Shown piece after piece: positions 1-24,079 of a stretch of 30,953 nt of DNA. Below the pieces are notes generated by a model, which was not told the DNA's origin, did not search any database, and saw only the letters and a program-made list of their open reading frames with translations. The position numbers were made by a program, and so were the translations under genes. The DNA comes from an uncultured Bdellovibrionales bacterium (GTDB lineage Bacteria; Patescibacteriota; Minisyncoccia; Moranbacterales; DUUL01). Where the stretch lies: assembly GCA_964599525.1 (NCBI GenBank), contig CAZRER010000001.1, positions 1-30,953 on the forward strand, given 5' to 3'. Each line of letters starts with the position of its first letter. Position 1 is the stretch's first letter.

Positions 1-561
1 TTTTTTTATTTTCTTTATCATCTCATCAATCTGCTTGTAAGTATCCTCCAGACTTCCTCCATTATCAATCACAAAATCAGCTAGTTTTTTTAATCCTGGT
101 ACATCCCTATCAGATTCTTGATTTTGACTAGCTTTTAGTTTCTCTAGGGTTTGCTCTCGATCATCAACTTTCTCCTGACGTTGAGTTATCCTGTTTAGAA
201 TAACTTCCACTGGGGCATCTACAAAAGCAAAAACGAAATTTTCTACCTTATTTTTAAAATAATTCAACTCCGCTTCCTTGCGAATTCCATCAAAAACAAT
301 AATTTCTGCTTCTTCATTTTTAATATCCCCCTCTAGGACTCTCGATAAAATATCCCCTCCAAACATATCTCTTAAACCATTGGCAATTGTATTTAAATTA
401 TCTCGGTCATAATCTAAATAAAGACGTTCTAAAATATCCGCCAATATTTTAGAATAACGCATTTGTTGTGCTTGATATTTTTCCTTTAGATAATCTGTAA
501 CCGTCCCCTTCCCCGCTCCAATATTCCCTGCTATTCCAATAACTATTTTTTTCTCTGACAT
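1..561 (-). CDS. P-loop nucleoside-monophosphate kinase-like protein (dNMP kinase / dephospho-CoA kinase-like fold), paralog A; 3'-truncated by window edge
   Basis: Not in the ORF track. Manual translation from ATG at 561: MSEKKIVIGIAGNIGAGKGTVTDYLKEKY...DGIRKEAE...LADFVIDNGGSLEDTYKQIDEMIKK, open to position 1. Walker A GNIGAGKGT; colinear with the ORFs at 5165 and 6253. Confidence 0.85.
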   Translation of the reverse strand, partial: MSEKKIVIGIAGNIGAGKGTVTDYLKEKYQAQQMRYSKILADILERLYLDYDRDNLNTIANGLRDMFGGDILSRVLEGDIKNEEAEIIVFDGIRKEAELNYFKNKVENFVFAFVDAPVEVILNRITQRQEKVDDREQTLEKLKASQNQESDRDVPGLKKLADFVIDNGGSLEDTYKQIDEMIKKIKK

Positions 562-568
562 AATTTAT

Positions 569-613
569 ATTATTTAAACTTATAAAAATTATTTAAACTT
601 ATAAAAATTATTT
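569..613. repeat. 19-bp tandem duplication (ATTATTTAAACTTATAAAA x2 plus a partial third copy)
   Basis: Identical units at 569-587 and 588-606, then ATTATTT at 607-613. Confidence 0.9.
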
Positions 614-658
614 CCCCGTACTACCAAAACCACTCTACCTTCGATCGATATTTTCTAA
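608..658 (-). pseudogene. dut: dUTPase C-terminal remnant (decayed motif V)
   Basis: Minus-strand frame reads L-E-N-I-D-R-R-*-S-G-F-G-S-T-G-K-*, matching trimeric dUTPase motif V (..RGEGGFGSTG). AGG, TAG and AGT are each one substitution from Gly, Glu and Gly codons. Confidence 0.8.
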
Positions 659-667
659 TAATTTTAA

Positions 668-997
668 TTACCTATCGTCACCATCACCACTCAAAACACC
701 TCTGTCCATTCTACTATATAATTTTTCTATATTTTTTTGGGCAATATCATCCATCTGCAAATCTAATTCTGTGGCTAGTTGAGCAATGTACCATAAAACA
801 TCACCTAACTCTTTTATTATATCATTTTTAAAATTATCATCTACAACACTTCCTTTGTCACGAATTAGTTTTTTCACCTTTTCAGAAACCTCTCCGGCTT
901 CACCTGAGAGCCCTAATGTTGGATAAATAATATTTTTTCCAGCTTCTGGGTAAATAGCTGTTTTTCTTGATTTTTTTTGATATTCATTAAAATTCAT
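668..997 (-). CDS. MazG-like (all-alpha) nucleoside triphosphate pyrophosphohydrolase
   Basis: 109 aa with GLSGEAGEVSEKVKK and KELGDVLWYIAQLA, i.e. the ExxE...ExxD metal-binding pattern of the MazG/all-alpha NTP-PPase superfamily. Confidence 0.88.
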   Translation of the reverse strand: MNFNEYQKKSRKTAIYPEAGKNIIYPTLGLSGEAGEVSEKVKKLIRDKGSVVDDNFKNDIIKELGDVLWYIAQLATELDLQMDDIAQKNIEKLYSRMDRGVLSGDGDDR

Positions 998-1027
998 TGT
1001 TTTTGTTCATTAAATAATTAAATATTT

Positions 1028-1058
1028 ATTGAAAATTTAAAATTGAAAATTGAAAATT
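1028..1058. repeat. Heptamer tandem array (ATTGAAA)n
   Basis: ATTGAAA ATTTAAA ATTGAAA ATTGAAA ATT, between the dut N-terminal remnant and the MazG-like gene. Confidence 0.8.
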
Positions 1059-1140
1059 ACCTTTCCATCCCTGCATCAGTAGTATGAGCATATTCCGGCA
1101 ACCGAGCTTTTTTATCCAATTTTTTAATTTGTATTTTCAT
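1057..1140 (-). pseudogene. dut: dUTPase N-terminal remnant (27 aa)
   Basis: Manual translation MKIQIKKLDKKARLPEYAHTTDAGMER*. This is the typical trimeric dUTPase N-terminus (KL...A.LP.YAH..DAGxDL), broken inside motif I. Confidence 0.85.
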
Positions 1141-1141
1141 C

Positions 1142-1166
1142 TAATTCTTAATTCTTAATTCTTAAT
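1142..1166. repeat. Heptamer tandem array (TAATTCT)x3
   Basis: TAATTCT at 1142, 1149 and 1156, then TAATT overlapping the tmk stop codon. Confidence 0.8.
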
Positions 1167-1866
1167 TATTAACTATCCCCCTCCAAATCATTTCACTAAT
1201 TTCCTCAATACTTAATAATTTTCCATTTTTAGCACACTGAATATCTACCCAGTTATTATTTTCTTTCACTAAATTCAAAGCACTTCGCTTGGCATTTAAT
1301 AAGTGCTGAGGATCATTCTCGTGAGCATCTTTTTTCCCAGCGAGATATTTTTTCTTTTCTAGATTATCTTTATTTTTTAATAATTCCAAGCTTAATTTCA
1401 AAGGTACATTCAAAAAAATAATTTGATCTGGTTTAGGAATTTTGAAAATATCGAATTCCATTTTATCCAACCAATCTAAAAATATTCTTCTTTTCCGAGA
1501 GTCTAAAATTTTTCCGCCCTGATGAATTTGATTAGAATTAGCATAGCGGTCAGCGATAACTATACAACCTTGTTTTAACCATTTTTTAATTTTAGTACTA
1601 GACTCAAATCTATCCGCAGCGTATAAAACCGAAGCAATTTTAGGATCAAGTTTAGCAAAGTCTCCGTGCTCGCCAGCTAAACATTCGCCAATTAATTTTC
1701 CAAAAAAGTTCTTTTCATACTGTGGAAAATCAATTGTTCGTACTTTATAACCCTCCTTTTTTAATCTTTTAATCAACAAATTTGTTTGCGTTTTTTTGCC
1801 ACTACCATCAATCCCCTCCACTACGATAAATCTCCCCCCTCGAACTTTTTTAATTTTATTTTTCAT
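1162..1866 (-). CDS. tmk: Thymidylate kinase
   Basis: FIVVEGIDGSGKKTQ P-loop, LYAADR, IADRY, IPKPD..IFL and D.HE lid motifs. Start moved to the ATG at 1866 (MKNKIKK); the track's 1932 start adds 22 residues with no recognisable motif. Confidence 0.93.
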   Translation of the reverse strand: MKNKIKKVRGGRFIVVEGIDGSGKKTQTNLLIKRLKKEGYKVRTIDFPQYEKNFFGKLIGECLAGEHGDFAKLDPKIASVLYAADRFESSTKIKKWLKQGCIVIADRYANSNQIHQGGKILDSRKRRIFLDWLDKMEFDIFKIPKPDQIIFLNVPLKLSLELLKNKDNLEKKKYLAGKKDAHENDPQHLLNAKRSALNLVKENNNWVDIQCAKNGKLLSIEEISEMIWRGIVNN

Positions 1867-1979
1867 CTGTATTCGCCCCCGAACTTTTAATGAATTAAAA
1901 TCTAATTCTCTCTTATTAACTTTTAGGCTCACTTACTACTATTGAGTTATATGAGCCCAATAATAATTAAATTGACATC

Positions 1980-2216
1980 TTATTTAAAATAACTTTCAAT
2001 AATCCCCTCGATTTCCTCCCAGGAATTAGCAATCCAGTTCGGAGATGCTGTTTCTATTTGTTGCCAGGGTCTTTTGTCTTGGGTGTCTATACTACTATCA
2101 AAACAATCTAAAATATCTGCCTTAGTTACACTTCCATCAAAATCCTGAAAAATTTTTAATAACTCTTGAAAACTATCAATAATTACTCCATCAAAATCTA
2201 AAACTATATTTCCCAT
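1980..2216 (-). pseudogene. HAD-superfamily hydrolase with large in-frame internal deletion
   Basis: 78 aa. Starts with HAD motif I (IVLDFDGVIIDS) and ends with a HAD-like tail (ASPNWIANSWEEIEGII). Motifs II-IV are absent; typical HADs are about 200+ aa. Confidence 0.65.
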
Positions 2217-2407
2217 AATTCATTTTTTTAAATTCCATTTTTTAAAATAAAAATATTTCACTAGCCATACTAAATAACCAAAATCTTAATAACTCACCCA
2301 AATAATACCAATAATCCTATAGATTTTTTAGCTTAAAGAATTTTCTCTCTTACAAATTATAATACTCTGCTAGTTTTACTTTTTTATTTCTACTGATTTA
2401 TATTTTT

Positions 2408-2436
2408 ATCATAGCACAAAAATATTCCCCGCTCAA
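2408..2436 (-). promoter_or_regulatory. Sigma70-type promoter for the HAD-tmk-dut/MazG-kinase A unit
   Basis: Minus strand TTGAGC (2436-2431), 17-bp spacer, TATGAT (2413-2408) preceded by an extended -10 TG. Confidence 0.55.
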
Positions 2437-2576
2437 TACAAGGTTACTTTTACAATATAATTCTTTATATTTCAACTATTCAAAATTATTAACAATTTTA
2501 ATTAGTTTTTTAGGCATAATAAATTCCGTAACTATTGGCGGATAATGTTTTAAATCAAAATATATATTTTAACACT

Positions 2577-2612
2577 TAATGCAAATTAACAGTTTACTGC
2601 TAATTTGCATTA
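2577..2612. repeat. Inverted repeat, 12-bp perfect arms
   Basis: TAATGCAAATTA (2577-2588) / TAATTTGCATTA (2601-2612); inner CAG/CTG can extend the stem. Confidence 0.75.
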
Positions 2613-2663
2613 TATATTAACGGACAAATTACCCAGCATAAAATTATTTTCACAATGTACTAC

Positions 2664-2707
2664 TTTATGTTTCAGTTACCGACGACCGTCGGTAATTGAA
2701 ACATAAA
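2664..2707. repeat. Long palindrome, 21-bp arms, 2-nt loop
   Basis: TTTATGTTTCAGTTACCGACG-AC-CGTCGGTAATTGAAACATAAA; one G:T mismatch. Confidence 0.9.
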
Positions 2708-2798
2708 AAGATATAAATATACAAACAAATACACGGATACACAGATAATTATCAAAACATACAAATCTCACCAACTCCACCTCAACATCGACTTCTCC

Positions 2799-2827
2799 TT
2801 GACATAATAACAATAATAATCCATACT
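2799..2827 (+). promoter_or_regulatory. Sigma70 promoter of the orphan gene
   Basis: TTGACA (2799-2804), 17 bp, CATACT (2822-2827); AGGAG Shine-Dalgarno at 2887-2891 before the ATG at 2898. Confidence 0.7.
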
Positions 2828-2897
2828 AATTTTAGATAGGAGTGGAGCTCATTTCAAAAAAAGCGGGAAACTTCCCGTCAAAAGCTAGGAGAAAACA

Positions 2898-3293
2898 ATG
2901 GAAACAATCAAAACGAGTCGTGAAGAAATACCGTCAGATTGGAAATTTTGTGTGGTTGAGAAAGGGGGTGCAAATACAATTCTAGAAGCAGCAGAGAAGC
3001 TTGATGACTATGCTCAAGCTGAGAGTGTGGTATGTTACAACAATACTGACGGATATCCCGCCAGCATTATTAGTTCTCGCCATTTCCCAATGGGATACAA
3101 ACAGTACACCGGAAATCTTGGAGAATATTTTTTCTTCTCACGGACGAAAGAGGTAGAGGTGCCGGGAGTTGAGATGATTCTTTTAGAAAAAGCAAAGGAC
3201 TGGAAAGGTGATATTCTTCCCAAATTATGGATATGTAAATTTGTATTCGTCTCAGGGAAACATTACAAAGATCTTGTTTTTTATAATTTATAA
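2898..3293 (+). CDS. Hypothetical protein (orphan, 131 aa)
   Basis: Own promoter, SD and terminator; G-rich coding-like composition; no motif recognised. Confidence 0.75.
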   Translation: METIKTSREEIPSDWKFCVVEKGGANTILEAAEKLDDYAQAESVVCYNNTDGYPASIISSRHFPMGYKQYTGNLGEYFFFSRTKEVEVPGVEMILLEKAKDWKGDILPKLWICKFVFVSGKHYKDLVFYNL

Positions 3294-3309
3294 ACTTAAA
3301 ATCCACCAT

Positions 3310-3350
3310 TCATCTAAGGTACAAAGTACCTTAGATGACTTTTTTTATTT
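3310..3350 (+). terminator. Intrinsic terminator
   Basis: TCATCTAAGGTAC-AAA-GTACCTTAGATGA 13-bp perfect stem followed by a T-tract. Confidence 0.8.
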
Positions 3351-3433
3351 TTCAGTTGTTGATCAGAAACCACAAATTACTCTTCTTAAAAAAACTCTAC
3401 TCGTTTTTTAAAAATTATAATTATCATTTTTAA

Positions 3434-3593
3434 TTATTCAAAAAAATTTTGGCTTCGACCATTTTTTAATAGTTCCTGCACCTCTTCTAAAGAAACTTTT
3501 TTGGTCATTCCTACTCCATCACTAGTTCTGAATGTAAACGCCCCCCTCATTACAATCTATAAAAGTACCTGCATATTCTGTATTCCCAAACAT
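3434..3593 (-). pseudogene. Possible frameshifted gene remnant of unknown family
   Basis: Two overlapping short minus-strand frames: MFGNTEYAGTFIDCNEGGVYIQN* (3593-3522) and MRGAFTFRTSDGVGMTKKVSLEEVQELLKNGRSQNFFE* (3550-3434). They overlap at a C6 run, and the segment is more GC-rich than its flanks. Confidence 0.3.
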
Positions 3594-3711
3594 AATAAAA
3601 AATATTTTACCATTAATTTCTTGTTTTAATTCTTCAATAATTTTTTATTTATTTTCTTACCTATTTTTTATTTGCTACATTTTTTAATAAATTTATTTGT
3701 TTTTGATAAAA

Positions 3712-5061
3712 TTATTTCTCCACAATATCCTGTTCACCTCGTTTGATGTCAAATTTGTTGGGGGTGCTGTCAATATGTAAAGTTAGTCCATCTTTCTTGA
3801 AAAGTTTTTCCAAACTAGAAATCATCTTTAACATTTGCTTTACCAATGTTGGATGCACAAAACGAGTAGAACGCAACTCCACCAAATAAGTCAAAGCTTT
3901 TAAATCTCCCACCACCCGACAAGGCACTTGATAACCCATCGGGATATAATATTGCTTAATAAATTTATCAACTTTTAATTTAGCAATTAACCGTTTTTGC
4001 TCTTGTAAAAATTTCTTAGCTTCTTTTCTTAAGTCCTCTGGCAACTGTTCTAAATACCAATCATTAAACCCGTGTCGCATAGTCAATAAAGGCATTCGCT
4101 GAGCTACCGCTCGATGTCGTTGGAGATCGCGAAAAGAACCAAAATCCAACAAAAACTCATACCCAACTACTCCACATTCAGCAATGATATTGGGCAATTC
4201 TGTTTTCGGTGGTCGCTTCTTCATTTCCTGTTGATGATTTTTTAATATTTTTTTATCAATATTATTAAATAATAATTTAAAATCCTCGGCCTTGGCATTT
4301 TCAAAATAATATTTTTTCTGCATTACATACTCATTATATTTTTCTGTTTCCTTATATCTTTTATGTCCAAAAGATTGTGGATAAATTTGTCGCAAAGCTT
4401 TCTCTGTCTTCTCGGCAATATCTCTAACTTCTGCCAAAGGATGATGTCGTAACATCATTAACTCATCAGCAAATTGTCTAAAATTCATTCGCCAAGCAAC
4501 ATTAGTTGTTGCCCCTGCTGACAACCAAGCCCTTGTAATATCAAAAGCTCGCGCCACAATTGCTTTATTATAAACTGTCTCATTTTCTCCCTTTTGTCTG
4601 GGATGTTTTTCTTTTAAAAATTCTTGCACTGGTTTTTGAGCTTGCAAATAAAACTCTCGCCAATTTTCCAAAACTTTCTCTCCTGTTTTTGTCTTTTTAG
4701 GATTAAGAAAAATTTGCTTAGAAAAATCAACATAACGAGTAGATGCTTCTTGTCCGGAGTACAATCGCCAATCTTGGATTGCTTTTGCCGCCAACATAGA
4801 AACCCCTTCCACAAAAACCGTTACACTTCCACAGTCACCGATAGACTTGTGTCCATAACCAACATAAAATTGCTCCATAAAATTTTCCGCTCCTTTTTCT
4901 TTTAATATTCTTAAATGATGTTTAATCCCTCCCGTAGAACGAGAATGTAAAGCTTGTAACATTGCTTCCGCTTGCCCATCAATCTCCGCTCCCGTATCTA
5001 AAACTAAAACAAAGCTCCCTTTGTTTTTTAATGGTTCTACAATGTGTTTTATTTTTTTCAT
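3712..5061 (-). CDS. thyX: FAD-dependent thymidylate synthase, tandem-domain (about double-length) type
   Basis: 449 aa. N-half GYGHKSIGDC and QEASTRY; C-half FRDLQRHR and ELRS...HP, all ThyX/Thy1 motifs. Confidence 0.9.
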   Translation of the reverse strand: MKKIKHIVEPLKNKGSFVLVLDTGAEIDGQAEAMLQALHSRSTGGIKHHLRILKEKGAENFMEQFYVGYGHKSIGDCGSVTVFVEGVSMLAAKAIQDWRLYSGQEASTRYVDFSKQIFLNPKKTKTGEKVLENWREFYLQAQKPVQEFLKEKHPRQKGENETVYNKAIVARAFDITRAWLSAGATTNVAWRMNFRQFADELMMLRHHPLAEVRDIAEKTEKALRQIYPQSFGHKRYKETEKYNEYVMQKKYYFENAKAEDFKLLFNNIDKKILKNHQQEMKKRPPKTELPNIIAECGVVGYEFLLDFGSFRDLQRHRAVAQRMPLLTMRHGFNDWYLEQLPEDLRKEAKKFLQEQKRLIAKLKVDKFIKQYYIPMGYQVPCRVVGDLKALTYLVELRSTRFVHPTLVKQMLKMISSLEKLFKKDGLTLHIDSTPNKFDIKRGEQDIVEK

Positions 5062-5147
5062 TAGTTTATATTATTTTTTATAAAAAAAGCTATCCTCCTT
5101 GGATAACTCTTATAATATCTTTTTTCAAAAATCTCCCACCTGTTTTT

Positions 5148-5176
5148 ATTTTAGCACAGAATGATTATTTAACCAA
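5148..5176 (-). promoter_or_regulatory. Possible internal promoter for thyX
   Basis: Minus strand TGTGC-TAAAAT (extended -10; hexamer at 5153-5148) with TTGGTT 17 bp upstream. Confidence 0.4.
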
Positions 5177-5707
5177 CTCATCTATTTGTCTGTATAAATC
5201 CTCCAATGTTCCATTGTTATCTATTACTACCCCAGCATACTGTTTTAATTCTTTAATTTGTTGCTCCGCTTCGCGCCCCCGATCCTTCTCAAATTCTTTA
5301 TAACTTTTTCCCTGATCATCAATTCTTTCATTCCGCTTAATAATTCTATTATAACTATTTCTGATACTAGTATCTAAATATATTAATTTAAACCCATCAA
5401 GCTTTTTCAAATGTTTAATATCTCCTAATCGTCGAACGCCATCAATAGCCACTATTTTATGCCTATCGTTTTTAACCTTTTTAGCAATCGCTTTTGCTAG
5501 AGCATCTTCTCCATAAGCCCTTCTTAAAATGCTAGACATAGTTTGTAAATTCTCACGATTGTTTTCCTGATAAATTTCATCTAACATATTTTTCAAAATA
5601 TCAGAAAAACGATACTTACCAGCTTGGTATTTTTTTTGCAAATATTCCGCCACAGTAGTTTTACCACTAGCCATTTCTCCAGCAAGACCTATGATGATTC
5701 CTGACAT
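5165..5707 (-). CDS. P-loop nucleoside-monophosphate kinase-like protein, paralog B
   Basis: IIIGLAGEMASGKTTVAEYL Walker A, RFSDIL, IDGVRR, IDNNGTLEDL; NMP-kinase fold pattern. Confidence 0.85.
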   Translation of the reverse strand: MSGIIIGLAGEMASGKTTVAEYLQKKYQAGKYRFSDILKNMLDEIYQENNRENLQTMSSILRRAYGEDALAKAIAKKVKNDRHKIVAIDGVRRLGDIKHLKKLDGFKLIYLDTSIRNSYNRIIKRNERIDDQGKSYKEFEKDRGREAEQQIKELKQYAGVVIDNNGTLEDLYRQIDELVK

Positions 5708-5727
5708 TGAATTATACTATTACTTTT

Positions 5728-6228
5728 TTAAATTTTATTTATAATAAGTTTATGTTTTGGATGATATTGTTTTAATTTTACACCTGCCTCTTTTAACATT
5801 TGACGTGAAGCTTTGAAAATATCAACATCCGCATATTTATCTGAATTATAAACAACCTCTTTAATTCCACTTTGAATTATTAATTTGGCACACTCATTGC
5901 ATGGAAACAAGGTAGCATAAAGACGACAACCATCAACACTACTATTAGAATTTAGAATAGCATTTGCTTCAGCATGCACAACATAGGTATATTTATTGTT
6001 CAGAGTGTCACCCTCGCGACACCAAGGAAATTTATCATCACTACAACCCTTAGGAAAACCATTATACCCTAAACCTACCACAATATTATCTTTATTAACA
6101 ATACAAGCACCAGTTTGAGTATTAGGATCTTTTGATCTCTTAGCAATTAGTTCTGGCATCAACATAAACACCTCATCCCAATCTAACACTTCCTCTCTCT
6201 TATATGTTTTTTTATTTTTACCAGACAT
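5728..6228 (-). CDS. dCMP deaminase (ComEB/DCTD-like)
   Basis: RSKDPNTQTGACIV, GYNGFPKG, HAEANAI and PCNECAKLI zinc-binding motifs. Confidence 0.95.
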   Translation of the reverse strand: MSGKNKKTYKREEVLDWDEVFMLMPELIAKRSKDPNTQTGACIVNKDNIVVGLGYNGFPKGCSDDKFPWCREGDTLNNKYTYVVHAEANAILNSNSSVDGCRLYATLFPCNECAKLIIQSGIKEVVYNSDKYADVDIFKASRQMLKEAGVKLKQYHPKHKLIINKI

Positions 6229-6252
6229 AAATTTTATTAAATAACTATTTAA

Positions 6253-6837
6253 CTACTCCCCTTCCATCACCTCCAACTCCTTTTTCTTTTTTAGAATTTC
6301 TTTCATAGCATCGTCAACTTGCCAAAGTAAATCGTCCATAGTTCCATCATTCTTAATGACAAAGTCTGCCTGTGCGCCAATAGCTGGAATATTTTTTTCA
6401 GTTTCGGCAGTCGCCTCAAATTCTTTAAACTGCTCTAAGGTTTGATTGTCATCAGATTTTTCTCCTCTACCAACTACTCTCTCCCAACGTAATTTTTGAT
6501 CAGCAGTCACATACATAATATAATTATTTTTAAAAGATTTTATAAAATCTAAATCTTTTAACATTCTCATACCATTAACACACATCAAGCCATCATGTTG
6601 TTCTACATATCGTCTTACCCCTTGATGTAAAACGTCTTCACCAAATCTCTCTTTAAATGTTGTATACAACCAAGATTGATCCTCTTTGGATGACTTATTA
6701 AAAAATAAATCTAAGGTTTTTTTTAAGGGCAAACTAAACCTTAAGAGTTGCACGTCATACCTTCTTTTTAAATAATGCGCAACGGTATCTTTACCACTTC
6801 CTGTTTCTCCTACTAACCCAATAATAATTTTTGACAT
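6253..6837 (-). CDS. P-loop nucleoside-monophosphate kinase-like protein, paralog C
   Basis: IIIGLVGETGSGKDTVAHYL (GKDT as in phage dNMP kinases), RFSLPL, NGMR, IKNDGTMDDL. Confidence 0.85.
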   Translation of the reverse strand: MSKIIIGLVGETGSGKDTVAHYLKRRYDVQLLRFSLPLKKTLDLFFNKSSKEDQSWLYTTFKERFGEDVLHQGVRRYVEQHDGLMCVNGMRMLKDLDFIKSFKNNYIMYVTADQKLRWERVVGRGEKSDDNQTLEQFKEFEATAETEKNIPAIGAQADFVIKNDGTMDDLLWQVDDAMKEILKKKKELEVMEGE

Positions 6838-6877
6838 TTTAATAAATTATCTAATTAATTCTAAAAACACAACTTCT

Positions 6878-6906
6878 ATTATAATTCATTCTACTTTTAT
6901 CGTCAA
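6878..6906 (-). promoter_or_regulatory. Strong sigma70 promoter for the kinase C-deaminase-kinase B-thyX unit
   Basis: Minus strand TTGACG (6906-6901), 17 bp, TATAAT (6883-6878). Confidence 0.75.
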
Positions 6907-6990
6907 TTTATTTTATTGTAATCACTCACAGCTTTAAATAATAGTAGGTGTCTTCGATGAATATTTAATGATATTTTACAGTTCCACCTC

Positions 6991-7025
6991 CTACAAATCT
7001 ACAAATCAGCTACAAATCTACAAAT
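6991..7025. repeat. Octamer array (CTACAAAT)x4
   Basis: Copies at 6991, 6999, 7010 and 7018, with a CAG interruption. Confidence 0.85.
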
Positions 7026-7114
7026 ATTAACTTACTTTTGTAAATTTAATATTGAGAGTATTGTTATTTATCGATACTACCTATAGTATCTAATAATTTA
7101 AAATTTTATCATTC

Positions 7115-7142
7115 ATTTCAAATTTCAAATTTCAAATTTAAA
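7115..7142. repeat. Heptamer array (ATTTCAA)x3 plus a degenerate copy
   Basis: Copies at 7115, 7122 and 7129, then ATTTAAA. Confidence 0.85.
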
Positions 7143-7172
7143 ATTAGAAATCCTCCTTCAAACAATAAACAC

Positions 7173-7213
<41 letters not shown>

Positions 7214-7214
7214 T

Positions 7215-8744
7215 TTATCTCGCATATTCCACCGCCTTCGTTTCCCGAAGCAAATTTACTTTAATTTCTCCAGGATAATTCAAGTCAGCTTCAATTTTTT
7301 CCGCAATACTTTTAGCAAGTTTAATTGCTCCCAAATCATCAACCTTTTCTGGATTAACAAAAACTCGAATTTCCCTACCGGCTTGAATAGCATAGCATTT
7401 ATTAACCTCGCTAAAACTATTTGCCGTATCTTCTATCTCCTCCAATCGTTTTAAATAATTTTCCAACGTGTCTTTTCTAGCACCAGGGCGAGAAGCACTT
7501 AAAGCGTCAGCAGCAGCAACAATTAAAGAGTAACTATTTTCAAAAGGATAATCTTCATGATGAGATTTCATAGCATCAATAATATCCTGTGACTGCTTAA
7601 ACTTCTTCAAAATACTTATACCCAATTCTATATGAGTACCTTGCACCTCTGCATCAACAGCCTTACCAATATCGTGTAATAACCCAGCTTTCTTAGCAAG
7701 GTTAGTATCCAAACCAAGCTCCGCTGCTAAATATCCCGAAAGATGCGCCACTTCTAAAGAATGCAACAATACATTCTGTCCAAAACTAGTTCGATATCTT
7801 AATCGTCCTAATAACTGTGTGAGTTTAGGATCAAACCCCGCAATACCCACATCGTAAACCGCTGCTTCCCCAGCCTCCATTGCTCTTTTGGAAACAAGTT
7901 CTTTAGCTTCCTTAACGGCTTCCTCAATTCTTGTTGGGTGTATTCGTCCGTCCTCCAAAAGTTTTTCTAAAGTCAAACGAGCCGTCTCTCGACGAATTGG
8001 ATTAAAAGCAGAAATAACAATAGCTTCTGGTGTATCGTCAACAATAATTTCCGCCCCAGTCAATCTTTCAATAGCTTTTATATTTCGCCCCTCCCGACCA
8101 ATTATCCTTCCCTTTAATTCGTCAGAAGCAATTGAAATAGTTGTAGTTGTTGTATCTGCGCTATGAGAACCAGCATATTTTTGCATCGCCATCACCATAA
8201 TATCCTTTGCTTTTTCCTCTAGGATCTCTTTTCTATCTCTTTCCAAAGAGGCCAATCCTTTTGTAACTTCATCTTTATGTGCCTTTTCGGCAACAGCTAT
8301 TAAAACTTTTTGAGCATCTTCCCTTTTCATTTCAGCAATTTTCTCTAGTCTTTCTATTTGTTGTTCTTTTACTTTCAAAATCTCTTCTCTAATATTTTTT
8401 ATTTCTCCCGCTTTGTGCTCTAATCTTTTTTTATCTTTTTCTATTTTGGAAATTTTTTGATCAATTTTTTGTTCTTTTTGTTCTAATCTGTCTTCTCGTT
8501 GCTGGATAGAACTCCTCCTCTTGGTTTCTTCTTTTTTAACCTCTTCTAAAATTCGAACTCCCTTATCTTTAACATCTAATAACTGCTCTTTTGCTTTCAT
8601 TTTAGCCTCATCCAATAATCTGGCAGCTTTTTCTTCTGCCGTACCAACCTGATTTTTGGCTACCAACTTTCTAATTACATAGCCAACAACTAACCCAGTT
8701 AGCAATGCTCCCGTTGCTATAATTATTGCTGTTGAAATATTCAT
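7215..8744 (-). CDS. rny: Ribonuclease Y
   Basis: N-terminal TM, coiled coil, KH domain (KGRIIGREGRNI), HD domain (LLHSLEV...LLHDIGK), C-terminal AIQAGREIRV. Confidence 0.97.
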   Translation of the reverse strand: MNISTAIIIATGALLTGLVVGYVIRKLVAKNQVGTAEEKAARLLDEAKMKAKEQLLDVKDKGVRILEEVKKEETKRRSSIQQREDRLEQKEQKIDQKISKIEKDKKRLEHKAGEIKNIREEILKVKEQQIERLEKIAEMKREDAQKVLIAVAEKAHKDEVTKGLASLERDRKEILEEKAKDIMVMAMQKYAGSHSADTTTTTISIASDELKGRIIGREGRNIKAIERLTGAEIIVDDTPEAIVISAFNPIRRETARLTLEKLLEDGRIHPTRIEEAVKEAKELVSKRAMEAGEAAVYDVGIAGFDPKLTQLLGRLRYRTSFGQNVLLHSLEVAHLSGYLAAELGLDTNLAKKAGLLHDIGKAVDAEVQGTHIELGISILKKFKQSQDIIDAMKSHHEDYPFENSYSLIVAAADALSASRPGARKDTLENYLKRLEEIEDTANSFSEVNKCYAIQAGREIRVFVNPEKVDDLGAIKLAKSIAEKIEADLNYPGEIKVNLLRETKAVEYAR

Positions 8745-9127
8745 TTTTAATTAATTGTCTAATCACAGTTATTTACACTCTTAATATTCTTTGAAAAATT
8801 ACTTACAAAATTAAATTCGTCAAATAAAATTAAATTTATTTTTAAAATCTTCTATCAAGCATTTTTATTCTAAGTGTGTTGTTCGAAATTTAATTAATTG
8901 TTTTAAATTTAATCTTGTAAAATATTATCTTAACTATAATTATCACAATATATTATTCTTATTAATATCTTCTCTATCCTCCTTTTTAAACTGTTGAAAA
9001 ATTTGATAGAAATCAAGAATAATCTTTATAAAATCCTTCACAAGACTATTCTTAACCTTTCTATAGTATATAATTTCTCAATACGCTTGTCAATCATATT
9101 AATACTATCTTTAATTAACCAAAAAAG

Positions 9128-9173
9128 TTATCCACAGCTACTCCTTGACTTCATTTTACAACTGAACTATACT
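9128..9173 (+). promoter_or_regulatory. Sigma70 promoter with adjacent perfect DnaA-box sequence
   Basis: TTATCCACA at 9128-9136; TTGACT (9145-9150), 17 bp, TATACT (9168-9173). Confidence 0.55.
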
Positions 9174-9311
9174 ACCTTTCGTGACTCAATATTATTGAAT
9201 CACTTTTTTATTTAAATCTTAGATAAAAATTTGGAGGGGCAATTAGCTAATTTTAATTATTCTATAGATAATTATATTCTAACTAATTTGCATAAACACT
9301 AAAAATAATTT

Positions 9312-10070
9312 ATGAAACTTTACTCGCTAATAAAAAGCAAGCGACTCATAAAATCACAAAATCTAAAAATATATTTATTCATAGGGGCAACCGTTATAAT
9401 ACTTGGTGGCTTTTTTTATTCAAGAATTACCCTGGCTAAATCAAGCTCTCAGACAAATAAATCAACTAACGCTCCATCACCTGTAATTACATCTAATGAT
9501 GAAATTACAAAAAAATTGCAACCAATCTCTAGTATCTCCTCTACCACAGTGCAAAGTACATCAATAAGTAAATTTAATTTATCTAAACTAAAAAAAGAAT
9601 TAAGTATAGATTCCTTAACCACTAAAATGAATGCTTCTCAGAAAAATAATAGCTTAAAAAATAATATTGCCAATATTTTAATTGGCACTCCTATGGAGAA
9701 TATGATTGAACCGATTAGTAAACAAGATAAATTAGTCGCTGCTTTCTTAGTAGGAATAGCTCTAAAAGAAAGTGGGTTTGGTAAACACGCTCCAGTTCTA
9801 AATGGTCAAGATTGTTATAATTATTGGGGATATCGCGGCAAAAGAAAAAAAATGGGCACTGGCGGACATACTTGTTTTAACAGTCCCGAAGACGCCGTAG
9901 CAACTGTCGGAAAAAGACTTCACACTTTAGCAATTAAACAAAATAAAAACACCCCTCGTAAAATGTTAGTTTGGAAATGTGGATCTAGCTGTAATAATAC
10001 TGGCGGAATGGCTGCTGCCAACAAATGGGTTAAAGATGTTTCTATTTATTTTGATAAAATTTATTATTAG
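9312..10070 (+). CDS. Membrane-anchored protein with C-terminal lysozyme-like (GH73/glucosaminidase-like) domain, paralog 1
   Basis: N-terminal hydrophobic segment, S/T-rich linker, then AFLVGIALKESGFG...CYNYWGY...FNSPEDAV. The helix-ES-x-x-G plus N-x-W-G pattern resembles the lysozyme-fold hydrolases. Function is inferred. Confidence 0.6.
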   Translation: MKLYSLIKSKRLIKSQNLKIYLFIGATVIILGGFFYSRITLAKSSSQTNKSTNAPSPVITSNDEITKKLQPISSISSTTVQSTSISKFNLSKLKKELSIDSLTTKMNASQKNNSLKNNIANILIGTPMENMIEPISKQDKLVAAFLVGIALKESGFGKHAPVLNGQDCYNYWGYRGKRKKMGTGGHTCFNSPEDAVATVGKRLHTLAIKQNKNTPRKMLVWKCGSSCNNTGGMAAANKWVKDVSIYFDKIYY

Positions 10071-21537: not shown

Positions 21538-22401
21538 CTATCTGAGCTTAACCTTACATTCACTTCTTTCACACTGAATAGTAATTGTACCGAGTTCATC
21601 GGTTCGTAAAATTTTACTATTTATTTTCTTTAATCTATTTATTGTCTCCATGGTTGGATGACCATACTTATTTTCTCCCACAGATATAATTGACCATTTG
21701 GGAGTAACCCTAGCTAGAAAAAAATCAGAACTAGAATATTTTGAACCGTGATGCCCCACTTTCAAAAAATCAACATCAACATCCTCATGATCAAAAACCA
21801 TATCCGCCTCAGCATCAAACCCAGCGTCACCTGTAAATAAAAAACTATTTTTTTTGTAATCCAATCTCGCCACAACAGAGCTATCATTTTTAGCTTTTTT
21901 ATCTTTCTCAATTTTGTCCGGATTAAAAAATTTAATAAATATTTCGTTATCTATCTCCAACTTTGACCCTTCTAAAATACTCTTCGTTTTTATTTTTTTC
22001 TCTTTTATTAACTTATACAATTCTACCCACAATTCATCTTCAGAAATTTGTCCATTATCTAAGACTACGCCAATTTTATATTTTTTAACCACATCCAAAA
22101 GTCCTGAAAAGTGATCTCTATCAGGATGAGTTATAATTACAACTTCTATTTTACTATCCATAAAAGGCATTACCTTCGACAATTCAGTTAAAACCTTTTT
22201 ACCATCAGGACCACCATCGATTAATATCTGATATCTATGTAGATAACTTATCAAAATAGAATCTCCCTGACCAATATCCAAAAAAGATACCTCCAGAGGG
22301 CGCATCTGATCATTTTTATACATACCAAAACTAAACAGTACTTCTACTACCAATAAAAACCCCACTACTCCCAGTTGAATTATCTGCTTGTTTAAAAACA
22401 T
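21538..22401 (-). CDS. ComEC/Rec2-type metallo-beta-lactamase-fold protein (stand-alone)
   Basis: FLDIGQGDSILI, LIDGGP, THPDRDHFSG, NDSSVV, FLFTGDA, LKVGHHGSKYSS, YGHP. Confidence 0.92.
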   Translation of the reverse strand: MFLNKQIIQLGVVGFLLVVEVLFSFGMYKNDQMRPLEVSFLDIGQGDSILISYLHRYQILIDGGPDGKKVLTELSKVMPFMDSKIEVVIITHPDRDHFSGLLDVVKKYKIGVVLDNGQISEDELWVELYKLIKEKKIKTKSILEGSKLEIDNEIFIKFFNPDKIEKDKKAKNDSSVVARLDYKKNSFLFTGDAGFDAEADMVFDHEDVDVDFLKVGHHGSKYSSSDFFLARVTPKWSIISVGENKYGHPTMETINRLKKINSKILRTDELGTITIQCERSECKVKLR

Positions 22402-22432: not shown

Positions 22433-24079
22433 TCACACTTCTTTTTGTCTATTTCTAATTACAATTAAAACTATACTTAACGCAATATAATACCCCAAAC
22501 TCCACCAAATATTTACTTTATTAAACTCAATAATTGCCCAAGGTATTTTCGCTAACTGATTAATACTCCCTATTTCCAAATGTAACATCATCCAGGTGGG
22601 CAGAGAAAAAATAAGTCCTAAACTATTTATTAGAAAGCTACTACCAACAGCAATGGCTCCTCCTAACATAATCAATGGCAACGCTGGCAAGATAATTACA
22701 TTCGCCAACAAAGAAATTAAAGAAATACTATTAAAAGTATAAATTAACAAACCTAATACTCCAAGTTGAGCGGATAGAGTTACCAAAACTATAGATTTAA
22801 TTCCCAAAAAATCATTTTCAATTTTAATCTTTTCCGCCAGTGGTCCATATATTAAAATAATTCCCAACGTTGCTAAAAATGATAATTGAAAACCAACATC
22901 ATAAAGAAGAATAAATGGCGAAGTAAAAACCATAATAACTGCCGTCAATATAATTATTCTAACAGAGCTAGCTAGTCGTCCCGACTGTAAAGCGTACAAC
23001 ATAATAACTCCCATCACCCCCGCCCTCACCGCCGACGATGGCGCCCCAATCATAATTATAAACAAAATAATACATCCCGTCACAAACCAAAATGCTTGTT
23101 TTCGCCACAACCCAATTCCAATACCTATCCACATAAACACCGTAGCCAAAATTGTAATATTATACCCGGAAACTGCTACTGTATGAGTTGTTCCTGTTCT
23201 TCTAAAATTTTCTGAAATATTTTCCGGCAATCTATTATCACCACCTAAAAGTAAACCCGCTAAATAAGCACTCTCTGGCATCGGAAATAATTGATTTATT
23301 TTATTTTCCAAAATACTTCTAAAATTATAAACACTTCTGAGTAGATAAATTTTAATGATTGTTATCTTATAAAATAATTTATCCAAATAATTTTTATTCT
23401 TAACTTTAATGACATCATCATTAATTATATTTCTTGATGAAAATTCCTCAGCTCCCACTATAGATTCAATCTTCGCCCCACTGCAAACTTGATAAACTTT
23501 TTTACTAGCCAAAAATCTAATATAATTAAATTTTTGATATTTATTCTCTGGAGTTTTTAACGTACATTCAATATTGTATTTTCTTCCATAATCATAATTG
23601 ATTCCCAGTGATACAAAAAGTAAAACTGTTTCTGATTTCTTAACAAATCTCCCATTATTTTTTTCATCTAGTTTTTTTCCTTCTATTTTAATATAAATTC
23701 GCTGATAGTCATTTTTAGCTTCTGGAAATTTTACCACTGTACCAATCCCCTTGTATCTACCACTCACCCAACCGCTAGATTTATCAATTTCGCCTTCTAC
23801 TCTAATGATACCTAAAATAAATCCTACAAGTAAAGCAATCGTCATTAATACTTTCAAGCTTGTGTGTTTAAAAAAATAAACAATCACACTAATAAGCAAC
23901 AAAACAAATAATCCGACTTCAACTAATTCAGAGATATTTACCAACGATTCAACAATAACCCCAACTAAAAATGCCAACAAAAATACTAAAAAAATATTTG
24001 CTCCACTAAAAATAGACCATCCCAATGATCTCTTTTCGTTTTCATTGTTTCTATCGTTTTTATAATCTTTATTGTTCAC
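22433..24079 (-). CDS. comEC: ComEC/Rec2 competence protein (TM + OB + competence domain, no MBL domain)
   Basis: YLAGLLLG, FRRTGTTHTVAVSGYNI, PSSAVRAGVM, GFQLSFLATLGI, LLANVIILP; GTG start. Confidence 0.92.
   Translation of the reverse strand: MNNKDYKNDRNNENEKRSLGWSIFSGANIFLVFLLAFLVGVIVESLVNISELVEVGLFVLLLISVIVYFFKHTSLKVLMTIALLVGFILGIIRVEGEIDKSSGWVSGRYKGIGTVVKFPEAKNDYQRIYIKIEGKKLDEKNNGRFVKKSETVLLFVSLGINYDYGRKYNIECTLKTPENKYQKFNYIRFLASKKVYQVCSGAKIESIVGAEEFSSRNIINDDVIKVKNKNYLDKLFYKITIIKIYLLRSVYNFRSILENKINQLFPMPESAYLAGLLLGGDNRLPENISENFRRTGTTHTVAVSGYNITILATVFMWIGIGIGLWRKQAFWFVTGCIILFIIMIGAPSSAVRAGVMGVIMLYALQSGRLASSVRIIILTAVIMVFTSPFILLYDVGFQLSFLATLGIILIYGPLAEKIKIENDFLGIKSIVLVTLSAQLGVLGLLIYTFNSISLISLLANVIILPALPLIMLGGAIAVGSSFLINSLGLIFSLPTWMMLHLEIGSINQLAKIPWAIIEFNKVNIWWSLGYYIALSIVLIVIRNRQKEV

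Follow-up and report, generated by a model that had tools for sequence, protein, structure and literature searches.

UPF0200-like kinases in a conserved thymidylate operon of a Moranbacteria-like lineage, and their possible role where adenylate kinase has been lost

Why would a bacterium keep three homologous P-loop kinases among its genes for dTTP supply? The question is raised by a block of seven genes on contig CAZRER010000001.1 of assembly GCA_964599525.1, a contig that we analysed in its entirety (30,953 nt, hereafter the window). The block encodes a dCMP deaminase (dCD), a flavin-dependent thymidylate synthase (ThyX), a thymidylate kinase (Tmk), a MazG-like pyrophosphohydrolase and the three kinases, which we call kinA, kinB and kinC. 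The assembly, labelled G000 here, spans 851 kb in 108 contigs with a completeness of 86.6%. We found that the kinases belong to a family known from archaea, and that across the order kinC is associated with the loss of the canonical adenylate kinase gene, adk. On balance, we favour reading the block as an operon for dTTP supply that a Moranbacteria-like lineage carries on its chromosome and inherits vertically, and in which the kinase trio would act as (deoxy)nucleoside monophosphate ((d)NMP) kinases that fill gaps in the nucleotide kinase set.

The kinases and their family

A sequence-only reading of this DNA had described seven co-oriented genes, three of them homologous P-loop kinases. Open reading frames (ORFs), Pfam and NCBIfam confirm this, with all seven ORFs on the minus strand at the positions claimed. 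The features of the block are as follows:

1..561, minus strand: kinA, UPF0200-like P-loop kinase of 189 aa, of which the contig holds 187 before it ends
668..997, minus strand: MazG-like nucleoside triphosphate pyrophosphohydrolase, 109 aa (PF03819, E 7.8e-11)
1063..1140, minus strand: leftover N-terminal part of a dUTPase (26 aa that a tblastn search aligns to the dUTPase of a relative at 50% identity, E 0.001)
1162..1932, minus strand: thymidylate kinase Tmk, 256 aa from a GTG start (PF02223, E 8e-25; domain begins at residue 38)
3712..5061, minus strand: ThyX, long-form flavin-dependent thymidylate synthase, 449 aa (PF02511, E 1.5e-19)
5165..5707, minus strand: kinB, UPF0200-like P-loop kinase, 180 aa; the most widespread type in the order
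5728..6228, minus strand: dCMP deaminase (dCD), 166 aa (PF00383, E 1.9e-23)
6253..6837, minus strand: kinC, UPF0200-like P-loop kinase, 194 aa, with GSGKDT and NGxR; a well-defined conserved clade
6878..6906, minus strand: best sigma-70-like site, immediately upstream of kinC (TTGACG-17-TATAAT, 11/12; a consensus match only)

The three kinases align end to end with 32–37% identity and 38 invariant columns, kinA and kinB being 36–37% identical. In kinA, kinB and kinC respectively, the P-loop reads GAGKGT, ASGKTT and GSGKDT, the following motif RYS, RFS and RFS, and the third motif DGIR, DGVR and NGMR, just as the sequence-only reading had listed them. Its view that the kinases are genuine paralogs, share the fold of NMP kinases and lie in a deoxypyrimidine operon is supported as well. 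Only the last two codons of kinA are missing from the contig, and a database protein of 189 aa supplies an identical full-length version.

The kinases are bacterial members of the uncharacterised archaeal family UPF0200/arCOG01045, which has an NMP-kinase fold. The profile of clade B (A3; clades are described below) matches SSO1041 (PDB 3LW7/3H0K) with E 1.6e-20, positions 5–180 aligning to 3–175, and the profile of clade C (A2) matches it over its full length with E 3.7e-13. Behind SSO1041 in these searches come partial matches to CoaE and full-length matches to AK1 and uridylate kinase. AlphaFold models of kinB and kinC (predicted local distance difference test scores, pLDDT, of 90.0 and 91.5) both have PDB 3LW7 as their best match. 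For kinB, the template modelling (TM) score to 3LW7/3H0K is 0.78–0.83, and archaeal UPF0200 proteins fill all of the top 30 places among its Swiss-Prot model matches (TM 0.78–0.87). The 3LW7 entry was deposited as an 'adenylate kinase-related protein bound to AMP'. The window kinases share with UPF0200/arCOG01045 a length of about 180–190 aa and the motifs DGvR, R-x3-R-x-x-x-DD and (I/V)xN. They differ in being bacterial (from the Candidate Phyla Radiation, CPR), in having only 19–28% identity to archaeal members, and in that their lineage has expanded to two or three paralogs fixed in a thymidylate operon.

Searched one sequence at a time, the proteins give faint and inconsistent Pfam matches (AAA_17/18, an N-terminal stretch of CoaE and the start of T4 DNMK), and Pfam ADK (PF00406, cut-off 26.8 bits) scores kinA at 20.6 bits, below its cut-off, with no match to kinB or kinC. 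The best NCBIfam model is PRK08356, an archaeal hypothetical protein, for which kinA, kinB and kinC reach 75, 78 and 62 bits, all short of the cut-off of 189; the three are distant relatives, not equivalogs. In NCBIfam, kinA also matches UMP_CMP_kin_fam over its full length (E 3.8e-9). The family has many members: a kinB-like profile matches 11,123 clusters (at 50% identity) at E <= 0.001. The nearest database homologs come from Candidatus Moranbacteria or Parcubacteria and are labelled 'dephospho-CoA kinase', 'AAA family ATPase' or 'hypothetical', so the automatic labels foreseen by the sequence-only reading do occur. Two database proteins, P0257 and P0280 (379 and 395 aa), are each made up of a tandem pair of UPF0200-like kinase domains.

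Which residues are conserved bears on the kind of acceptor. In a HMMER alignment to porcine AK1 (3ADK), DGYPR is the counterpart of DGvR, and RLLKRGETSGRVDD is that of R-x3-R-x-E-(R/K)-x-DD, where three residues are deleted. The catalytic set (P-loop Lys, DGxR Arg, LID Arg-x3-Arg and DD) can thus be aligned to AK1 3ADK, and it is conserved in clades B and C. Compared with the short-LID NMP kinases as a group (AK1 and the UMP-CMP kinase TIGR01359), profile and fold matches are full-length but weak, and the P-loop, DGxR arginine, LID arginines and DD pair align; the differences are an identity of about 20% and a LID that is three residues shorter in the window kinases. In CoaE, a conserved Asp after strand 2 is the proposed catalytic base. 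Aligned to Thermotoga CoaE 2GRJ, the window kinases place the invariant Ser of their RFS motif opposite the Asp of NVDRIG. This residue pattern would fit transfer to a phosphate acceptor (an NMP) better than transfer to a hydroxyl (a nucleoside or dephospho-CoA).

Published work on the family is sparse. UPF0200/arCOG01045 occurs in nearly all archaea with its function stated as unknown, and neither the UPF0200 protein TK1334 nor its paralog TK2192 (arCOG01045) showed dephospho-CoA kinase activity once purified (PMC6650551). Our literature search on UPF0200, SSO1041, PRK08356, arCOG01045 and Patescibacteria adenylate kinase found no other functional study.

The operon and the loss of adk across the order

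We built a tree from 74 family members taken from 40 related genomes. It contains clade C, a broad B-like group, a kinA clade of three sequences and a distant clade D. Clade C is tight (28 sequences) and has an approximate likelihood-ratio test (aLRT) support of 100; the positions that set kinC apart as a clade are P37, D53, W56, W118 and T146-E147. The kinA clade has the same support (aLRT 100) but includes only G000, G002 and G003, i.e., 3 of 41 genomes. A conserved clade is supported for kinC but not for kinA. Clade D is not found in G000. An approximately unbiased (AU) test of kinA grouped with this distant clade gives p 0.507; because clade D lacks both DGxR and the DD pair, we placed kinA with the B type by its motifs.

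The arrangement kinC-dCD-kinB-ThyX-Tmk is conserved throughout the order as a housekeeping operon. Our sample of the order comprised 151 genomes with completeness of at least 85%, G000 included, and in it the window's family is f1. The gene order recurs across f1, and in families f7 and f8 dCD is likewise flanked by kinases. Individual slots can be swapped: ThyX is replaced by ThyA plus dihydrofolate reductase (DHFR) in some relatives, MazG stands at the dUTPase slot, and the two closest relatives have a dCTP deaminase in place of dCD and kinB. Relatives carry one to three paralogs in changing combinations, with minimal sets of kinC plus one other. Every f1 genome except G001 carries kinC, and all but G010, G017 and G019 add to it one or more members of type A, B or D; G010 and G019 have a long ADK-like gene instead, and G017 has a completeness of just 74%. 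Genes like kinB occur in 108 of the 151 genomes, including adk-positive families without canonical Cmk. In G001, a genome of the same genus (1.3 Mb, 91% complete), neither a UPF0200-like kinase nor adk was found, which may be a binning or assembly gap.

Since the same genes recur in dozens of related genomes, the block is far beyond chance. Its kinC, dCD and kinB genes are separated by just 20–24 nt, with 103 nt from kinB to thyX. Tmk passes the curated model TIGR00041 (91.8 bits, cut-off 83.25), and dCD scores 82.7 bits on PF00383, with invariant zinc motifs HAE (H85-A86-E87) and PCxxC (P109-C110...C113). In G000, tmk, thyX, dCD and MazG are each single-copy, which together with the synteny argues for a housekeeping operon and against both a phage insert and a defence island. 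Uniform composition and the inheritance of the block through 12 families led us to reject the phage insert, and the single-copy housekeeping genes and the order-wide synteny led us to reject the defence island.

The rest of the G000 nucleotide kinase inventory has conspicuous gaps. Our search of the genome did not find canonical ADK, Cytidylate_kin, Cytidylate_kin2, NDK or dNK, nor canonical CoaE, nor the 363–403-aa ADK-like protein of some relatives. Canonical Gmk is present, so of the three kinase genes that the sequence-only reading had proposed to look for (adk, gmk and cmk), adk and cmk were not found and gmk was. There is also an archaeal-type UMP kinase, PyrH (contig C75:2911-3630), which scores 195.6 bits on TIGR02076, over the cut-off; scores above the cut-off of the bacterial pyrH model are confined to a single family of the order. 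The genome encodes the ribonucleotide reductase (RNR) NrdD and a fragment of a class I/II RNR. A Walker-A scan of all of G000 for small kinases returned kinA, kinB and kinC, ABC ATPases, TsaE-, EngB- and SMC-like proteins, and one Tmk-like protein of 280 aa. This last protein (contig C7:10220-11062) has a hydrophobic N-terminus and the motif GIDGSGKST, and of the Tmk model it matches the opening 45 positions only.

Does the absence of adk extend beyond one incomplete assembly? We called canonical adk at E <= 1e-20 and kinC at a calibrated threshold. Canonical adk is found in 0/20 genomes of f1, 0/20 of f6 and 5/20 of f7, and in 21/21 of f2, 18/19 of f4, 20/20 of f5, 20/20 of f9 and 4/5 of f10. 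The kinC gene is found in 19/20 genomes of f1, 19/20 of f6, 17/20 of f7, 10/19 of f4 and 7/20 of f9, and in none of the other families. Across the sample, kinC is thus in 55 of 58 adk-less genomes versus 18 of 93 adk-positive ones, and this order-wide tally shows the association of kinC with adk loss. The three exceptions are G001 (no family member), G029 (a kinC fragment at a contig end) and G064 (a long ADK-like gene). The sole adk-less genome of f4 (G072) has kinC, and the three f7 genomes without kinC are all adk-positive. Searches of f1, f6 and f7 for other means of recycling AMP, namely pyruvate phosphate dikinase (PPDK) and polyphosphate kinase 2 (PPK2), found neither.

Gene context agrees with these calls. 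The adk and map genes are usually located downstream of secY. In f11, adk directly follows secY, and in f1 nothing adk-like does. In G000 itself, the stretch from secY to the contig end (C43:1-705) has no ORF of 50 aa or more.

What the kinases may do

The favoured reading assigns each gene of the block a step. By known steps, the deaminase converts dCMP to dUMP, ThyX converts dUMP to dTMP and Tmk converts dTMP to dTDP, and the MazG-like pyrophosphatase stands in the place of dUTPase. The three UPF0200 kinases would be ATP:(d)NMP phosphotransferases that cover the missing Adk, Cmk and possibly Ndk activities, and they would act on ribo- and deoxyribonucleotides alike rather than forming a dNMP-specific set. 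Our best guess for kinC is an AMP/dAMP kinase. For kinB, it is a (d)CMP kinase that would interconvert dCDP and dCMP at the dCMP-deaminase branch point, and kinA would be an additional B-type copy. A more specific proposal, which we advance tentatively and hold to be somewhat more doubtful than probable, is that Adk was lost in three related Moranbacteria-like families, that a UPF0200-type kinase (likeliest kinC) took over its role, and that a sister became a (d)CMP kinase working with dCMP deaminase.

Several points weigh against these assignments. The substrate specificities of kinA, kinB and kinC are ones that we infer, and the position equivalent to AK1 Arg44 is Lys or Ala in the window's three kinases and is not conserved. 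The G000 assembly is just 86.6% complete, and it is possible that the Tmk-like 280-aa protein of C7 is a further nucleotide kinase. Seven f1 relatives, as well as G029, G064 and G072, encode the divergent ADK-like protein of 363–403 aa, which could be the AMP kinase of its carriers. The adk-less families are also related to one another, so independent losses of adk are few (at least two). Finally, kinC occurs alongside canonical Adk in 18 genomes, and this coexistence means that kinC is not simply redundant with Adk. As to the ADK-like protein, examples are L084:718-1812 (G013) and L085:666-1802 (G010), which score 72 bits on TIGR01351 and have an N-terminal extension and an insert, and none of the f1 relatives that carry it has kinB.

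Other activities have to be considered for proteins in this position. If the kinases were (deoxy)nucleoside kinases acting on a 5'-OH, e.g., producing dCMP from deoxycytidine, their place beside dCMP deaminase would make sense as a dCMP supply, and dNK, TK and Udk genes were not detected in the genome save for weak P-loop matches. We consider this unlikely, however, because the conserved acidic catalytic base after the P-loop region is absent, the residues that are conserved correspond to the arginines with which NMP kinases bind phosphate, and the closest solved relative, 3LW7, was crystallised with a nucleoside monophosphate. A paralog could instead supply nucleoside diphosphate kinase activity (e.g., dTDP to dTTP) and so replace Ndk. 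No NDK gene was found in G000, the operon ends at dTDP, and adenylate kinase can stand in for Ndk in E. coli, but pyruvate kinase or other enzymes could serve instead, and we give this role a low probability. Equally improbable, in our estimation, is a role for kinB and/or kinC as partners that sense nucleotides for the deaminase or activate it, in the manner of the P-loop kinase domain of DcdV and the anti-phage dCTP deaminases, with a defence role conceivable. The kinases match the kinase domain of NF041025 (E 1e-5 to 1e-7) and PADLOC PDLC02373 (E 1e-8 to 1e-13), dCD matches the deaminase part of both, and fused kinase-deaminase proteins of 334–350 aa have TM scores of 0.87–0.88 to kinB. The kinB-dCD (and kinC-dCD) pairs thus correspond to the two domains of the fused anti-phage dCTP deaminase, both of which DcdV requires (10.1101/2021.03.31.437871). 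In the window, however, kinase and deaminase are separate genes beside the genome's only thyX and tmk, and signs of a defence island around the block are absent. The block also contains the genome's only dCD and is conserved and syntenic across the order, kinB-like genes occur away from any deaminase as well, and NF041025 scores the kinases at 23–31 bits and dCD at 73.6 against a cut-off of 400.

The automatic annotation is less credible still. We see almost no chance that one or more of the three kinases is a dephospho-CoA kinase (CoaE), and we rejected that label. It does have some basis: CoaE shares the P-loop kinase fold and N- and C-terminal sequence similarity with the window kinases, its structures are among the fold matches, N-terminal matches exist although they are weak (kinA scores 33 bits on PF01121), and the genome has no canonical CoaE that we could find. 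But on TIGR00152 kinA, kinB and kinC reach 42.7, 31.5 and 36.1 bits against a cut-off of 65.55, Ser stands at the position of CoaE's conserved Asp, and archaeal TK1334 and TK2192 lack this activity (PMC6650551). In addition, no gene in 41 genomes reaches E 1e-8 in a search for canonical CoaE, and the model TIGR01510 for CoaD, the phosphopantetheine adenylyltransferase whose product is dephospho-CoA, is matched in just 2 of 41 relatives and not in G000; this scarcity of CoaD argues against the CoaE label. Kinship with the T4 dNMP kinase gp1, which the sequence-only reading had proposed, also fails. The GSGKDT P-loop of kinC is T4-like, and the T4 dNTP module has comparable partner genes (cd, td, frd and dCTPase/dUTPase). 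However, PF21448 (DNMK, 232 positions) is matched solely in the P-loop region, at positions 2–58, by kinB (31.2 bits) and kinC (32.6 bits), both just over the cut-off, with kinA at 15.3 bits, and the T4 gp1 structure 1DEK is matched on residues 4–42 only. The remainder of the window kinases is UPF0200-like, and the block is chromosomal and inherited, not phage-derived.

The same reading had gone further, proposing a dedicated set of four kinases, one for each dNMP (dA, dG, dC and dT), that recycles host DNA imported through ComEC. Three paralogs and Tmk do share one deoxynucleotide cluster, adk and cmk were not found, and ComEC is within the window. We nevertheless think this very unlikely. 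Gmk and the archaeal-type PyrH are present, so the set does not reduce to one kinase per dNMP, and a scheme of this kind is hard to square with one to three paralogs per relative, a minimal set of kinC and one other, and a kinA in just 3 of 41 genomes. Given NrdD and the class I/II RNR fragment, deoxynucleotides need not derive from imported DNA. Nor is ComEC (22433-24079) linked to the block: some 15 kb separate the two, with unrelated housekeeping genes in between (RNase Y, RelA/SpoT, CorA and FtsK). ComEC itself is split, with the Competence-domain gene at 22433-24079 followed by a separate metallo-beta-lactamase gene at 21538-22401.

Neighbouring features and significance

Other parts of the block have peculiarities of their own. 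ThyX, at 449 aa, is about twice the usual length, and this long form (428–462 aa) is conserved among relatives. Its Thy1 match is restricted to residues 43–229 (PF02511 71 bits, cut-off 24.8; TIGR02170 44.4 vs 87.9), and a BLASTP comparison of the C-terminal half with the N-terminal half detected no internal duplication. The MazG-like gene occupies a slot that holds an intact dUTPase in relatives, and it is flanked by dUTPase remnants, i.e., the N-terminal one at 1140-1063 and a C-terminal one of 7 aa at 631-611. Neither dUTPase nor dCTP deaminase was found elsewhere in G000.

The interval between tmk and thyX (1933-3711, ~1.8 kb) lacks a conserved gene. It holds a 78-aa ORF (1980-2216) that opens with a HAD-like DFDGV motif, a 131-aa plus-strand ORF without a Pfam match, and several hairpin- or terminator-like sites. 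Among relatives, tmk abuts thyX in G003, and G002 has a nucleoside 2-deoxyribosyltransferase-like gene in the interval. An Rfam search of window positions 1-9400 gave no match.

Adenylate kinase is counted among the essential core genes and serves as a universal marker, and a whole bacterial lineage without the canonical enzyme calls for explanation. The candidates for its replacement belong to a large orphan family, and the operon context (dCMP deaminase, thymidylate synthase and Tmk) together with the natural swaps makes the function of that family directly testable. If the proposed takeover is true, it would be a non-orthologous displacement of Adk and would give UPF0200/arCOG01045 its first biochemical function. 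It would also correct a widespread mis-annotation as 'dephospho-CoA kinase' and refine CPR metabolic reconstructions at the AMP, CMP and nucleoside diphosphate (NDP) kinase gaps.

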